Positions 4,817-63,515 of a DNA stretch of 64,000 bases are shown one piece after another. The notes under the pieces are model-generated. The model worked only from the letters and a program-made list of their open reading frames with translations. It had not been told where the DNA came from and did no database searches. The stretch's first letter is position 1, and every line of letters begins with the position of its first letter. Where the stretch lies: assembly GCA_026396195.1 (NCBI GenBank), contig JAPLXH010000005.1, positions 3,710 through 67,709 on the forward strand. Reading direction: 5' to 3'. The stretch comes from Candidatus Nealsonbacteria bacterium (GTDB lineage Bacteria; Patescibacteriota; Minisyncoccia; Minisyncoccales; JAGGXC01). A program made the translations under genes and the position numbers.

Positions 4817-5566
4817 TTACGCGTTACTGTTTTTAAAAGCCTTGACTATTGGCTCTAAATTTCCATCTAAAATTTTTTCCAGATTATGCCAGGATTTTTT
4901 TATTCTATGGTCGGTTATCCGGTCTTGGGGAAAATTATAAGTACGTATTTTCTCTGACCTTTCAGCCGAACCTATCTGATTTTTTCGCTCTCCCGTAATT
5001 TTTTCTTGCTCCAGTTGTTTTTGTCTTTCAAGAAGCCTTGCCGCCAAAATGCTCATTGCGTTTTCTTTATTTTCCAGCTGATTTCTTTCGGTTTGAGAGG
5101 TGACTACCAAGCCGGTTGGCAAATGAGTAATTCTGATGGCTGTTTCTCTTTTATTTACATTCTGTCCGCCCGGTCCCGATGCTCGGTAAACGTCAATTTT
5201 TAAATTTTCCGGCCGGATTTGAATTTCCGTTGGTTTTGGTTTCAATAAAACGGCACAGGTGATAGTTGAAGTATGGACTCGGCCGTTTTTTTCGGTTCTT
5301 GGAATACGTTGAACCCGGTGAACGCCGCCTTCATGTTTTAAGCTATCCCAAGCTCCCTCTCCTTTTAGTTCGAAAATTACATGTTTTAGCCCCCTCAAAG
5401 AAGTAGGATTTATATCCAAGGTTTTTTGCTTCCAACCTCTATATTGAGCGTAATTTGAGTACATTCTGAAAAGGTCTTTGACAAACAAAGCCGCTTCCTC
5501 GCCGCCGGTTCCGGCTCTAATTTCAAAAATAAGGGCCTGGGATTCTTTTTTAACTTCATTTTCCAT
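4817..5566 (-). CDS. prfA: peptide chain release factor 1, lacking N-terminal domain 1
   Basis: GGQ motif (ASGPGGQNVNK), RF1-type recognition region RVQRIPRTEKNGRVHTS, and EIRAGTGGEEAALF close to the N-terminus. Only 249 aa. Confidence 0.8.
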   Translation of the reverse strand: MENEVKKESQALIFEIRAGTGGEEAALFVKDLFRMYSNYAQYRGWKQKTLDINPTSLRGLKHVIFELKGEGAWDSLKHEGGVHRVQRIPRTEKNGRVHTSTITCAVLLKPKPTEIQIRPENLKIDVYRASGPGGQNVNKRETAIRITHLPTGLVVTSQTERNQLENKENAMSILAARLLERQKQLEQEKITGERKNQIGSAERSEKIRTYNFPQDRITDHRIKKSWHNLEKILDGNLEPIVKAFKNSNA

Positions 5567-7398: not shown

Positions 7399-7761
7399 AT
7401 GGAAGAATTAATTGCCAAAATTATATTGGGAACAAGTCTTACCGGAATAGGCGCCATTTTAATCAGAAAAATTCCGCTTTTGAAGGAGCCGGCTTTTCAG
7501 CAGATCGACATTTTAGAAGGAAAAAACATTTTTTTAAAAATAAAAGATAAAATCTTAACTTTTAAAATTTTTTCCTCGCCTGAACTATTCTTGCAGAAAA
7601 TTCTTTCTAAAGTCAGGGTTTTTACTTTAAGATTCGAAAAAAAAATTGAGGACCAGCTTAAAAATTTAAGAGAAAAAGCAAAAGAAAAAAATAATTTAGG
7701 AAAGGATGACTATTGGGACGAGGTTAAAAAAAAGAAAGAAGGCGAAGATAAAAAATTTTGA
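7399..7761 (+). CDS. hypothetical small protein, N-terminal TM segment
   Basis: ORF only. Hydrophobic N-terminus and a charged tail. Confidence 0.4.
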   Translation: MEELIAKIILGTSLTGIGAILIRKIPLLKEPAFQQIDILEGKNIFLKIKDKILTFKIFSSPELFLQKILSKVRVFTLRFEKKIEDQLKNLREKAKEKNNLGKDDYWDEVKKKKEGEDKKF

Positions 7762-7818
7762 AATAATAATTATGAGTTGTCTCCGGGGATAGCTCAATGG
7801 TAGAGCAATCCCGATGTT

Positions 7819-8061
7819 GCCACCTTAGCTCAATTGGTAGAGCAACAGTTTTGTCCCAGAAGTATCTTTCCCGATGAAATCGGGATTAGAACTTCGGGAT
7901 CCCGTAAATCTAAACTCGCCGTCCTAGCTCAATGGTAGAGCAACAGTTTTGTAAACTGTAGGTTGTCGGTTCAAATCCGACGGACGGCTCACGAAATGTA
8001 TGGCGAGTAAGATTTTACTGGGATAAACTGTAGGTTCGCGGTTCGAGCCCGCGAGGTGGCT
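7819..8061 (+). tRNA. split tRNA-Thr(UGU): halves 7819-7854 and 8025-8061 separated by a 170-nt insertion
   Basis: Joining the halves gives GCCACCT TA GCTC AATTGGTA GAGC A ACAGT TTTGT|AA ACTGT AGGTT CGCGG TTCGAGC CCGCG AGGTGGC T, a perfect cloverleaf. The insertion ends pair with each other (CCCAG 7855-7859 with CTGGG 8018-8022). Confidence 0.45.
7918..7989 (+). tRNA. tRNA-Thr(UGU), intact, innermost of the nest
   Basis: GCCGTCC TA GCTC AATGGTA GAGC A ACAGT TTTGTAA ACTGT AGGTT GTCGG TTCAAAT CCGAC GGACGGC T. All stems are Watson-Crick. CCA is not encoded. Confidence 0.9.
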
Positions 8062-8136
8062 TTACGGAATTTTAAGAACATCGGGATAAACTGTAGGTTG
8101 TGGGTTCGAATCCCTCTCCCGGCTTGAATTGCTTGA

Positions 8137-8291
8137 CCCCCCCACTAATTTTACTAATAAATTTTATGCGCAGTGCGTATGCCCAATAGCTCATAAACCT
8201 TTTTTGGCGAAGCGTTGCGCCTCAAGACGGGATGTGGCTATTCGCCACTGGCGCTTCGCAAATAACTCCCGAAGTAAAATTAGTGGGGGGG
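8137..8291. mobile_element. MITE-like element: 19-bp perfect terminal inverted repeats flanked by TTGA on both sides
   Basis: CCCCCCCACTAATTTTACT at 8137-8155 is the exact reverse complement of 8273-8291. TTGA lies at 8133-8136 and 8292-8295. The interior is GC-rich and holds a GCGAAGCG/CGCTTCGC stem. Confidence 0.4.
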
Positions 8292-8319
8292 TTGACAGAG
8301 GTTTTTAAAAAAGTAGTAT
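8292..8319 (+). promoter_or_regulatory. candidate 16S promoter
   Basis: TTGACA (8292-8297), a 16-nt spacer, then TAGTAT (8314-8319), about 75 nt upstream of the 16S 5' end. Confidence 0.3.
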
Positions 8320-8393
8320 TGAATATACAAGAACATTAAAAATTTATTGTTGTTAATTAAGTGTTAGTGTTTTAGAGTCGTTTCGAACTCTAT

Positions 8394-9899
<1,506 letters not shown>

Positions 9900-10046
9900 A
9901 TTTTAAGTGTCGGCTATAATTGAAATCGGAAATTTGGATTTTAATTATAAGGTATTAATCGAACCGCGGAAAATTGTTTTTAACAATTCCGCGCCTGCGT
10001 GAATAGAGAGTATATTCTGCGCGGTACCTTCAAAGATCGATTGCTT

Positions 10047-10073
10047 AGTTCGAAACGACTCTAAGATACTAAC
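10047..10073 (+). other. 3' strand of the pre-16S processing stem (partner 8363-8389)
   Basis: agttcgaaacgactctaa (10047-10064) is the exact complement of ttagagtcgtttcgaact (8372-8389). Pairing extends imperfectly to 8363/10073. Confidence 0.65.
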
Positions 10074-10160
10074 TTAAAAAACAAAAGCCTTTACCCCCCT
10101 CCCTTATTATAAGGGAGGGGGTTTACAGTTTTTGTATTTTTAATTAAAATCATGTTATAA

Positions 10161-10232
10161 GGGCGTGTGGCTCAGTGGTAGAGCGCGTTCCTGATAAGAA
10201 CGAGGTCGAAGGTTCGATTCCTTCCACGCCCA
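10161..10232 (+). tRNA. tRNA-Ile(GAU)
   Basis: GGGCGTG TG GCTC AGTGGTA GAGC G CGTTC CTGATAA GAACG AGGTC GAAGG TTCGATT CCTTC CACGCCC A. Confidence 0.95.
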
Positions 10233-10353
10233 CTTATAAAAGGGCCTATAGCAAAACAGAATTTTGATATATCAAGCTTCAGCTTGCTATAGTTTAATGG
10301 CAGAACACTACATTTGTCCCGATTGGAAATCGAGGATTCCTGATAACTTTGGT

Positions 10354-10428
10354 GGGCCCGTAGTTTAGTGGTAGAACGCCTCATTTGCAATGAGGAGATT
10401 GTGGGTTCGATTCCCGCCGGGTCCACCA
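10354..10428 (+). tRNA. tRNA-Ala(UGC), CCA encoded
   Basis: GGGCCCG TA GTTT AGTGGTA GAAC G CCTCA TTTGCAA TGAGG AGATT GTGGG TTCGATT CCCGC CGGGTCC A CCA. The G3:U70 identity pair is present. Confidence 0.95.
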
Positions 10429-10436
10429 AAGTTATC

Positions 10437-10575
10437 GGAACAAGTAGGGATGGAACAGTTCCCTGCCTGCCGGCAGGCAGGGATTCTGCCTAGGTCCACT
10501 GAAAGTTCGAGTCCCGTAGTCCCCGCCGACAACACCGCTTTTTAATAAGGCGGTTTTTTGGTAGAATAAAAGAAC
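10437..10575 (+). repeat. cassette-array boundary repeat A
   Basis: Contains the 22-nt palindrome ccctgcctgccggcaggcaggg (10461-10482), gttcgagtcccgtagtccccgcc (10505-10527), the hairpin ccgc...ggcgg plus a T-run, and TGGTAGAAT 8 nt before the ATG. Confidence 0.7.
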
Positions 10576-32740: not shown

Positions 32741-32832
32741 CGTAAAGAAAATTTTAAAAAAAATTTTCCACGTGGTAGGCGCGTGATGAAATTTTATATA
32801 AATTTCATTTTACGCGCCACCATGTAGAACAT

Positions 32833-33090
32833 ATGTTTTATACTTATCTTTTGGAGAGTAATATCGATAAAAGTTGGTACATTGGTTATACAAAAGATTT
32901 AAGAGAAAGATTTCTAAGTCACAATAAAGGAGAAAACATAGCAACAAAGAATAAAAAACCATGGAGATTAATTTATTATGAAGCATATATAAATATAATT
33001 GATGCCAAGAAAAGAGAAAAATTTTTAAAATCAGGTTCAGGAAGAAAATTTCTTAAACGGCAAATTAGTAATTATTTAATAAAAACCTAA
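32833..33090 (+). CDS. stand-alone GIY-YIG nuclease-domain protein
   Basis: FYTYLLES...WYIGYTKDLRERFLSHN matches the GIY...YIG...R...N pattern. 85 aa. Confidence 0.8.
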   Translation: MFYTYLLESNIDKSWYIGYTKDLRERFLSHNKGENIATKNKKPWRLIYYEAYINIIDAKKREKFLKSGSGRKFLKRQISNYLIKT

Positions 33091-33097
33091 TTAAATT

Positions 33098-63435: not shown

Positions 63436-63515
63436 ATATTTTCAGAAAGTTATACTAAACTTTTTTGAATTCCGTCGAAATTTCCATCCCATCCCGATTG
63501 CATCGGGATTTTAAT

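Follow-up and report, generated by a model that had tools for sequence, protein, structure and literature searches.

Nested tRNA-Thr(UGU) genes in Candidatus Nealsonbacteria and a family of small cassettes that carry tRNA genes

How does a bacterial tRNA gene come to lie inside a second gene for the same tRNA, and this one inside a third? The question is raised by positions 7783-8124 of a 64-kb stretch of DNA from a Candidatus Nealsonbacteria metagenome-assembled genome (GenBank assembly GCA_026396195.1, contig JAPLXH010000005.1; the whole stretch of 64,000 nucleotides is referred to here as the window), in which an intact tRNA-Thr(UGU) is enclosed by a split but otherwise perfect tRNA-Thr(UGU), which is itself enclosed by a decayed one. 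A first-pass annotation of the sequence had suggested either that a very small element, aimed at the anticodon loop of tRNA-Thr and bringing along a replacement tRNA, had inserted serially, or that a split tRNA is excised and religated. Our comparative data support serial insertion, and they reveal features that had not been part of the annotation: the two insertions belong to a large family with a conserved two-helix layout, some copies of which contain a gene for a GIY-YIG nuclease. Cassettes of this kind seem to be widespread in ultra-small bacteria of the Candidate Phyla Radiation (CPR) and undescribed so far. The annotation had known of no such element, and in full-text literature searches, likewise, neither nested tRNA genes nor tRNA-carrying GIY-YIG cassettes were found described.

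A tRNA-Thr(UGU) gene nested within two others

A single tRNA-Thr(UGU) is called at the locus by both ARAGORN and Rfam (7918-7990, 74.8 bits), in agreement with the perfect inner gene of the first-pass annotation; it is the sole intact tRNA-Thr(UGU) of the window and presumably the only working copy. The pieces to either side of it, 7819-7853 and 8024-8061, yield a flawless tRNA-Thr(UGU) when joined in silico, so that the middle copy is as pristine as had been claimed. The joining was done by hand, as the split genes were not called in the intron mode of ARAGORN (introns of up to 300 nt). Profile hidden Markov models (HMMs) of the two halves, 5' and 3', trained on intact tRNA-Thr(UGU) genes, detect six pieces in mirror order, namely three 5' pieces (7787-7808, E 4e-5; 7819-7853, E 5e-8; 7918-7951) and three 3' pieces (7952-7989; 8024-8061, E 1e-6; 8087-8124, E 5e-11). 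The proposed pairing of the halves is borne out computationally: the minimum-energy fold of 7775-8130 recovers the concentric helices with a z-score of -4.5, which is equalled by none of 100 shuffles.

In the following, an interrupted tRNA gene is called a shell, the inserted DNA a cassette and the intact tRNA within it the cargo; P1 and P2 are the hairpin and the long helix of the cassette. A slash in a sequence marks a junction. The locus is composed as follows (coordinates, strand, feature).

7783-7808, +, 5' fragment of the outer shell: positions 1-26 of the native tRNA-Thr(UGU), with two acceptor substitutions and CAGTTTTG lost
7809-7818, +, truncated P2 left strand of the older cassette: TCCCGATG followed by TT, pairing with CATCGGGA at 8079-8086
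7819-7853, +, 5' exon of the middle shell: tRNA positions 1-35, the last being G35; once the cargo of the older cassette
7854-7899, +, P1 hairpin of the younger cassette, 46 nt and without an open reading frame (ORF): TCCCAGAAGT...ACTTCGGGA, identified by folding
7900-7917, +, P2 left strand of the younger cassette: TCCCGTAAATCTAAACTC, pairing with 8003-8023
7918-7990, +, inner cargo: intact tRNA-Thr(UGU) with acceptor GCCGTCC (ARAGORN, Rfam)
7990-8023, +, right flank of the younger cassette: P2 right strand, terminating in CTGGGA
8024-8061, +, 3' exon of the middle shell: tRNA positions 36-73, the first being U36; its acceptor AGGTGGC pairs with GCCACCT
8062-8086, +, right flank of the older cassette: TTACGGAATTTTAAGAACATCGGGA, fitting the family consensus GCAAAATTT(N6-9)ATCGGGA, as for instance in L045 (GGCAAAATTTTGAACATCGGGA)
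8087-8124, +, 3' exon of the native tRNA-Thr(UGU) in the outer shell: identical to 3418-3455 of contig L003

In the older cassette the right flank (8062-8086) is preserved and close to the consensus, P1 is missing, and of the left strand only 7809-7818 remains; its end pair TCCCGAT...ATCGGGA is also present in L011. Some details of the first-pass annotation need correction. It had placed the break between U36 and A37, but family members read TTTTG/CTCCGA at the left junction, so the T belongs to the 3' exon and the break lies between G35 and U36. What had been described as a single left arm of 63 nt consists of two modules, the P1 hairpin (7854-7899) and the P2 left strand (7900-7917). The decay of the outer copy holds with respect to its fragmentation (HMM E-values of 4e-5 and 5e-11 for the two fragments) and the loss of CAGTTTTG. 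It does not hold for the U-U mismatch in the T stem, which is native and also found in the intact orthologue of L003/L005 and in the functional inner tRNA of L001, or for the acceptor register, which is not shifted by one but contains two substitutions relative to the orthologue (GCCGGGA to CCGGGGA).

A separate element of 155 bp that resembles a miniature inverted-repeat transposable element (MITE) lies 13 bp from the nest at 8137-8291, precisely at the -35 box of the 16S promoter. Its terminal inverted repeats measure 19 bp (CCCCCCCACTAATTTTACT / AGTAAAATTAGTGGGGGGG), and a duplicated TTGA flanks it (8133-8136, 8292-8295). The element is absent from L003 and L005, which read TTGACAGAGG unbroken, and only its right end (AAAATTAGCGGGGGGGTTGACA) is found in L011.

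Syntenic relatives and the order of insertion

The locus lies in a gene order shared with several relatives: release factor, L31, S2, EF-Ts, an ORF designated ORF120 (window 7399-7761), tRNA-Thr and 16S. ORF120 is listed by NCBI as a protein of a Candidatus Nealsonbacteria metagenome-assembled genome. Empty sites do exist among these syntenic relatives. In L003 (an 804-kb contig), L005 and L006, whose ORF120 is 80% identical to that of the window, a single intact tRNA (GCCGGGATAGCTCAATGGTAGAGCAACAGTTTTGTAAACTGTAGGTTGTGGGTTCGAATCCCTCTCCCGGCT) occupies the site. The 5' fragment of the outer shell is orthologous to this tRNA (L003 3384-3455, and at the same place after ORF120 in L005/L006), from which it differs by the two acceptor substitutions and the missing CAGTTTTG, while the 3' part of the shell (8087-8124) is identical to it. 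Judged by sequence, the intact tRNA of the three empty sites is the ancestor of the outer shell. A nest of one level is found in L011/L012 (77%), with a decayed shell around TCCCGAT-TTAT, the intact tRNA and CC-ATCGGGA, and in the closest relative, L007-10 (89%), an interruption likewise follows GAGCAA. The existence of both empty and one-level relatives indicates that the native gene was invaded first, and that the cargo of that invasion, today's middle tRNA, was invaded in turn. The perfect state of the middle gene is explained if this second insertion is recent.

The Thr site is thus empty in L003, L005 and L006 and filled in the window, L007-10 and L011/12. A site in tRNA-Ile shows the reverse, being filled in L003 and empty in the window, so presence and absence between close relatives go both ways. 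Nests comprise two levels in the window and up to four in unrelated CPR contigs (L045).

A family of two-helix cassettes

Similar loci were sought with the right junction as query. Among genomes (one per species) a single locus was found, L001 from Ca. Buchananbacteria, which is a multi-level tRNA-Thr(UGU) nest between tRNA-Tyr and L33/tRNA-Trp. In metagenomes we used a degenerate right-junction pattern with T[CG]GGGAT, in which the 3' exon was fixed over its first 13 nt (the end of the younger window cassette, CTGGGAT, falls outside it) and obtained 32 loci, of which ~22 are nested tRNA-Thr loci from many projects and the remainder chance matches in coding DNA. The right junction had no match in viral contigs, and there is therefore no sign of carriage by phages.

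The nests share one layout: a 5' exon ending in TTTTG (G35), P1, the P2 left strand, an intact tRNA, the P2 right strand ending in ATCGGGA, and a 3' exon beginning with TAAAC (U36). P1 is a hairpin of ~45 nt that starts with (C)TCCGA or TCCCGA and ends with TCGAGAG or TCGGGA. The left strand of P2 reads TCC(N)CGAT...AAAATTTT, and its right strand, of ~26 nt, GCAAAATTT(N6-9)ATCGGGA. The younger cassette of the window conforms to this layout with P1 at 7854-7899 and P2 at 7900-7917 and 7990-8023; its P1 has the size and position of P1 in L015, L025, L045 and others. In a comparison of 15 elements, including the tRNA-Ala nest of the window described below, the outer P2 helix comprises 11 pairs, seven of which show compensatory changes. 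Inserts measure 124-280 bp, with a non-tRNA part of 50-100 nt overall (98 nt in the window), and the cassette itself, at ~125-170 bp, carries a whole tRNA. One and the same tRNA type can be both cargo and shell: the type with acceptor GCCAGCG is cargo in L033 and shell in L025, and the reverse applies to GCCGCCC. As far as such sequence comparisons can tell, the elements transfer tRNA genes horizontally between lineages.

The cassette end motif TCGGGAT occurs 15 times in the window against 7.4 expected copies, a number reached by one of 100 shuffles. It was rejected as a genome-wide signal, being non-diagnostic, since it is also present outside nests, in a terminator-like hairpin after a gene (ATCCCGATTGCATCGGGATTTT, 63488-63512) and in a 16S rRNA helix (AATCCCGATTTATCGGGATGA, 8838-8855) that is conserved in L003, L011 and L013. 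These occurrences may be a coincidence or reflect a shared structural theme.

Cassettes carrying other tRNA species

The family layout also encloses tRNAs for Ala, Ile, Trp and Ser. Cargo and shell always share the amino acid, and they are of the same tRNA species except in L014 and L036, where a tRNA-Thr(CGU) is followed by the family right flank and the 3' half of a shell. A second nest, which was not among the observations of the first-pass annotation, is present in the window itself, in the spacer downstream of the 16S gene (10242-10527); it was read from the sequence.

10288-10527, +, nested tRNA-Ala
up to 10316, +, shell 5' exon, ending in CTACATTTG; break after G35 (TTTG/.../CAA)
10317-10336, +, P1
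10337-10353, +, P2 left strand
10354-10428, +, cargo: intact tRNA-Ala(UGC)
10429-10440, +, P2 right strand, AAGTTATCGGAA
10441-10527, +, decayed 3' part of the shell; L003 retains the right flank and the 3' part of the shell

At 5314-5560, L003 contains a nested tRNA-Ile(GAU), unlike the window, in which tRNA-Ile is not nested. Its shell is identical in sequence to the cargo, with a break after G34 and a hairpin in the T loop of the shell. Further examples are a nested tRNA-Trp(CCA) in L014 (2539-2690, flanks TCCGCCACAATTTT / TGGAAATTTGGGCGGA) and tRNA-Ser(GGA) as the cargo of L054-57.

The tRNA-Ala nest lies in an rRNA operon (8395-10560) that consists of 16S, tRNA-Ile and tRNA-Ala and is followed by a terminator-like hairpin (10530-10552). 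No 23S rRNA is detected by Rfam in the 64-kb window, so 16S and 23S are unlinked here. A GC-rich perfect palindrome, CCCTGCCTGCCGGCAGGCAGGG, recurs within dead tRNA shells of unrelated CPR contigs (window 10461-10482; L023; L030; L003 5677-5720) and may be a separate miniature palindromic insert.

Decay and chimerism of the shells

When 16 shells were joined in silico, only four gave a clean tRNA-Thr(UGU) (the middle copy of the window, L025, L027 shell 1 and L045 shell 1), all of them innermost, and the other 12 lacked a clean cloverleaf. One deletion, GGTAGAG/TCCC, is recurrent (L011, L027, L030, L044, L045); it removes the 5' anticodon strand together with P1 and probably arose via AGAG microhomology with the P1 end. 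Hairpins are inserted in T loops of shells (GGTTC/.../GAATCC) and in D loops (L023), and the shells of L033 and L053 carry the same cargo-less pair of P1 and P2 in the T loop (TTC/GAA). These two loci are ~92% identical over L033 975-1560 and L053 157-745; their cargos differ by three compensated stem pairs, and their shells are one compensated acceptor pair apart.

Anticodon stems of shells are chimeric in L022, L033 and L053. In L022 and L033 the 5' strand GCGCT of the shell stands opposite a 3' strand, ACAGT, that is identical to the strand of the cargo and no longer pairs with the 5' strand of the shell. In L027 three layers have different acceptors, and all have the odd T arm GTCGGTCCGAATCCGAC, while L045 shell 1 has retained its own 3' anticodon strand. 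Nearly all loci examined have an intact cargo tRNA within the nest; for L021/L043, the sequence upstream of the right flank yielded no tRNA-Thr(UGU).

Signatures of splicing were searched for in the inserts. With respect to group I introns, group II introns and ribozymes, Rfam returned only tRNA matches, both for the whole window at the gathering threshold and in permissive searches of the locus and of L033/L053/L054; the group I model RF00028 matched neither window 7600-8400 (E<=10) nor L033/L053/L054 (E<=1). The ends do not fit group I either, in that the 5' exon ends with G35 (TTTTG/) and the insert with GGGA in nearly all copies. For group II there was no match to RF00029 or related models, the insert starts with TCCC or CTCC instead of GUGYG, and the sole ORF found encodes a GIY-YIG protein and not a reverse transcriptase. 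Inspection and folding revealed no bulge-helix-bulge, the archaeal arrangement of two 3-nt bulges at the splice sites with a 4-bp helix between them, at the junctions, where the insert termini pair with each other or P1 and P2 begin directly. Given broken shells, intact cargos and no intron or ribozyme signal, the shells are best understood as pseudogenes, with decay proceeding from the outermost shell inwards.

Two further ideas were abandoned. G-U pairs as evidence of a helix formed in RNA were set aside, as the helices are plain Watson-Crick and show no excess of G-U on the sense strand (14 vs 15). A staggered, RNase III-like cleavage of an extended anticodon helix was dropped because P1 and P2 start exactly at the junctions across the family.

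A GIY-YIG nuclease associated with the cassettes

Some cassettes contain a small ORF inside the loop of P1. It was found in L033 (81 aa), and P1-borne ORFs of 81-82 aa are also present in L053 (GCA_030691885.1; ORF 90% identical) and in L054-57 (ORF 64% identical, Ser cargo). All are GIY-YIG domains (Pfam E ~1e-16 to 1e-15). A stand-alone relative is encoded elsewhere in the window.

32833-33090, +, stand-alone GIY-YIG nuclease gene, 85 aa, between tRNA-Tyr and tRNA-Thr(GGU); product 43% identical to the P1-borne ORF of L033

By this similarity, its product is a candidate for a trans-acting nuclease of the element family. The protein belongs to a family of more than 1100 relatives (E<=1e-8), nearly all of 83-100 aa, which to our knowledge is unstudied. 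Among solved structures, the UPF0213 protein 1ZG2 comes closest; group I intron endonucleases are matched only faintly, in their catalytic part, and the 85-aa protein has no recognisable DNA-binding domain. All eight of the family contexts examined adjoin tRNA or tmRNA genes, among them tRNA-Tyr/Thr (window), Tyr (L027), Trp (L037), Phe (L046-48) and tmRNA (L051/52). In L014 (1670-2120) the GIY-YIG ORF stands between an intact tRNA-Thr(GGU) on its 3' side and, upstream, a 5' fragment of tRNA-Thr(GGU) whose D loop contains a hairpin insert.

The surroundings of these stand-alone genes show arrangements of their own. In the window (32741-33097) a hairpin (GGCGCGTGATGAAATTT...AAATTTCATTTTACGCGCC, 32778-32818) and a second CCACCA, which looks like a duplicated tRNA 3' end, precede the GIY-YIG gene. 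A similar hairpin (CGCGTAAAATC...GATTTTACGCG) and repeated pieces ending in TCCACC lie 3' of the tmRNA gene in L051. These arrangements may represent a second type of element that targets tRNA 3' ends. In L027 (1-400) an intact tRNA-Tyr and the GIY-YIG ORF are followed by a duplicated 3' fragment of tRNA-Tyr, a duplication that is partial and not concentric, and this fragment has a two-hairpin insert in its T loop (GGGGGTTC/TGCGCC...GGCGAG/GAATCC). Between tRNA-Tyr and the nest of L033, positions 866-929 have a sub-threshold Rfam match to the small RNA BjrC68 (34.4 bits against a gathering threshold of 39; E 4e-6).

Possible origin of the nests and alternative explanations

We favour, with some reservation, the explanation that a selfish cassette associated with a nuclease was inserted twice in succession at the locus, each time breaking an essential tRNA gene and supplying a rescue copy of it. 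Such a cassette consists of the P1 hairpin, the long P2 helix and an intact tRNA-Thr(UGU) between the P2 strands, and both insertions occurred between G35 and U36 of whichever tRNA-Thr(UGU) gene functioned at the time. Each insertion would destroy the resident gene, and the cargo would take over its function; as the cargo bears the same target in its anticodon loop, it becomes the next victim, which leads to nesting. The innermost tRNA would then be the working gene and the shells pseudogenes decaying from the outside in. Autonomous copies would be those with the small stand-alone GIY-YIG gene in the P1 loop, while copies without an ORF, such as both cassettes of the window, would depend on a nuclease made elsewhere, for which 32833-33090 is the local candidate. 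The cassette most likely spreads by homing, that is by a nuclease break in an intact target gene and recombinational repair from a copy bearing the cassette, and the repair would sometimes also copy the 3' exon of the donor shell. The chimeric shells of L022 and L033, the shared T arm of L027 and the exchange of types between cargo and shell suggest such recombinational copying and, taken with the nuclease gene inside the element, match the pattern of homing; co-conversion would run into the 3' exon, which suggests a break 3' of the insertion point. P2 probably has a part in the transcript as well, where it would serve as a processing stalk that pairs the leader of the cargo with its trailer and prevents mispairing of the cargo with the shell halves. 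The data show that insertion took place, at which nucleotide and in which order, that the cassettes form a family associated with the nuclease gene, and that shells decay; that the nuclease makes the break, that copying proceeds by homologous repair and that P2 has this role is what we infer.

Several points weigh against this explanation. The nuclease is linked to the cassettes by position only, and as a bare catalytic domain of 81-88 aa it has no DNA-binding domain with which to recognise a site. The window cassettes have no ORF, and the GIY-YIG gene of the window is 25 kb away and only 43% identical to the P1-borne ORF. Copying of the donor exon is not universal, as L045 shell 1 keeps its own 3' anticodon strand, and the comparison of donor exons is biased by a search pattern in which 13 nt at the start of the 3' exon were invariant. 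Conserved and compensated helices abutting both junctions are not needed for plain homing, and their maintenance may reflect a structure-specific DNA reaction instead of a processing stalk. The cargo-less P1 and P2 in the shell T loops of L033 and L053 would fit an element that inserts itself at hairpin loops, and the compensated acceptor pair between these shells suggests that pairing of the shell ends could still matter. Finally, the explanation does not account for the origin of the first cargo-bearing cassette.

It is tempting to speculate, although we regard it as rather doubtful, that the cassettes form a new class of selfish element acting as a natural 'cleave-and-rescue' drive on tRNA genes, in which the minimal GIY-YIG nuclease cuts the resident allele and the rescue allele is immune. 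The rescue allele would differ in the acceptor and T stems, the sole parts in which cargo and shell differ, and each layer of a nest would mark one round in an arms race of nuclease specificity against the sequence of the tRNA stems. If true, unusually fast, compensated evolution of tRNA stems would be expected in CPR bacteria, as seen perhaps in the cargos of L033 and L053, and the cassettes would be the first natural counterpart of engineered drives.

The alternatives differ in how much of the evidence they account for. Transposition would explain P1 and P2 as miniature inverted-repeat units (TCC...GGA) put into DNA-hairpin loops by an unidentified transposase or a structure-specific GIY-YIG nuclease, with the tRNA as a passenger between inverted repeats and survival only where the passenger matches the broken gene. 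Consistent with this, both modules are bounded by the same inverted motif (TCCCGA...TCGGGA) and stand in tandem, their helices are plain Watson-Crick with no G-U excess on the sense strand (14 vs 15), the insertion points TTG/TAA, TTG/CAA and TTC/GAA are loop centres, cargo-less pairs of P1 and P2 occupy a different site in the T loops of L033 and L053, further hairpins sit in D loops (L023), and the separate MITE-like element with its target-site duplication lies 13 bp away (8137-8291). Yet a transposase gene is seen in no locus, the tRNA junctions lack a target-site duplication such as the TTGA of that neighbour, cargo and target always agree in tRNA species (L014 and L036 apart), orientation and nucleotide, the chimerism for the donor 3' exon in L022, L033 and L027 is what recombinational copying predicts, and the only protein gene inside the element belongs to a homing-endonuclease superfamily. 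Elements like IS200/IS605 would fit insertion after TTTG without duplication and tandem modules at one site, but TnpA and TnpB were seen in no locus (no dedicated protein search was made) and the cassette ends pair with each other and do not form separate subterminal hairpins. On balance we consider transposition unlikely. Less likely still is that the inserts are true RNA introns, excised by cellular enzymes such as RNase P/Z or RNase III and an RtcB-type ligase, with both the middle and the inner tRNA functional; this also covers the excised and religated split tRNA of the first-pass annotation. It would account for junctions that are exact in every copy and abutted by helices, for insertion sites that are always loops (anticodon, T, D), for an ORF placed, like those of structured introns, in the loop of a peripheral hairpin, for the flawless middle tRNA of the window and three other innermost shells, and for the single compensated acceptor pair between the L033 and L053 shells; moreover, anticodon loops of patescibacterial tRNAs do carry self-splicing introns, including at 35/36 (PMC13011429). 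Against it stand the lack of a group I or II core and of any known ribozyme, a 5' exon ending in G and not U, an insert end that is not G, junctions at which no bulge-helix-bulge can be drawn, and no RNA-specific G-U signal. In addition, 12 of the 16 shells have no clean cloverleaf, the anticodon stems of L022, L033 and L053 are chimeric, and nearly every locus examined holds an intact spare of the same species, which would be unnecessary if shells were spliced.

Integrases often attach at the anticodon or T loops of tRNA genes, and their elements carry the replacement for part of the tRNA. Repeated 3' halves downstream of an intact tRNA could accordingly be the remnants of tyrosine-recombinase islands in the anticodon loop that left duplicated tRNA pieces behind. 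Such integrative elements, however, would duplicate only the tRNA part borne by attP, in tandem and not concentrically, whereas the present loci have the matching 5' halves upstream, mirroring the 3' halves in order, and carry the tRNA in full; their inserts measure 124-280 bp, and the neighbouring regions that were read contain no integrase gene (at the window locus, the ORFs nearby encode the release factor, L31, S2, EF-Ts and ORF120). This origin is contradicted by the anatomy of the locus, and we regard it as very improbable. The least credible explanation, with next to no weight in our assessment, is an assembly artefact from collapsed or chimeric tandem tRNA-Thr repeats. A 12-mer, AAACTGTAGGTT, does occur three times in the locus, and the short-read assemblies L002, L004 and L007-10 all terminate inside it. 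But L002, an independent Logan assembly (SRR20698647) that ends at this 12-mer, is 100% identical to window 7740-7962, so at least the left half of the locus is not a mis-assembly; more than 20 contigs, which come from different projects and assemblers, show this layout as well, and in every shell the two acceptor strands pair with each other across the insert.

Comparison with known systems

The cassette proposed here has several features in common with the group I introns known from bacterial tRNA anticodon loops, including position 35/36 in Patescibacteria, some of which contain a homing-endonuclease gene (PMC13011429; bioRxiv 10.1101/2020.01.27.920355). Both occur in the same phylum, target the anticodon loop even at 35/36, have an optional endonuclease ORF in a peripheral hairpin with a predominance of ORF-less copies, and presumably spread by homing. 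The cassette, in contrast, has no ribozyme core, no U at -1 and no terminal G; it is not spliced but replaces the broken gene by a complete spare, and it forms recursive nests with decaying shells. Another parallel is SegB of phage T4, a free-standing GIY-YIG homing endonuclease in a tRNA gene cluster, which cleaves the tRNA region of a rival genome and is passed on with the tRNA DNA at its flanks through recombinational repair, a process termed 'intron-less homing' (PMC2330249). A GIY-YIG nuclease gene among tRNA genes is common to both. SegB, however, is larger, lies between genes, interrupts no tRNA gene and leaves no split shells, whereas the proteins of the cassettes are bare UPF0213-type catalytic domains of 81-88 aa.

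Integrative elements that target tRNA genes also hit an essential gene and bring sequence that preserves its function, and their serial integration leaves arrays of fragments. They carry only the 3' part, encode an integrase, extend over kilobases and leave 3' fragments in tandem, whereas the cassette carries the whole tRNA within ~125-170 bp and leaves concentric fragments. rRNA genes of CPR bacteria contain non-intron inserts with GIY-YIG ORFs, short inserts without ORFs and intervening sequences processed by RNase III, the GIY-YIG ORFs being confined to inserts that belong to neither group I nor group II introns (PMC11270868). Phylum and hairpin-like inserts in loops of structural RNAs are shared. 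As rRNA tolerates fragmentation, such inserts need no spare gene, while an insert in a tRNA gene would be lethal unless a rescue copy travels along. Archaeal split and intron-containing tRNAs resemble the shells in having halves parted by an insert with pairing ends, and twintrons likewise nest mobile elements. Here, by contrast, there is no bulge-helix-bulge, the host is a bacterium by its 16S, the nested object is a whole gene like its host gene, and the shells decay. An analogy in terms of logic is offered by the synthetic 'cleave and rescue' and 'home and rescue' gene drives reportedly presented by Oberhofer, Ivy and Hay in 2019 and by Kandul et al. in 2021. There, too, a nuclease destroys an essential gene that the element rescues, and by the parallel drawn here carriers would be favoured and loss would be difficult; these drives are engineered, Cas9-based and used in animals.

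For genome analysis it is relevant that tRNA finders report only the inner gene of a nest, so that shells are possibly miscounted or taken for introns or split tRNAs, and that tRNA and rRNA regions of CPR genomes assemble poorly, with many contigs of this study ending inside a nest. At the same time, nests provide a dated series of broken tRNA genes, in which the origin of split and intron-bearing tRNA genes becomes directly testable. Taken together, the element works like a homing-endonuclease element but fails every test that defines an intron. Besides introns, inteins and free-standing genes, it would represent a fourth lifestyle of homing-endonuclease genes, namely that of an unspliced insert in an essential RNA gene that brings along a complete spare.

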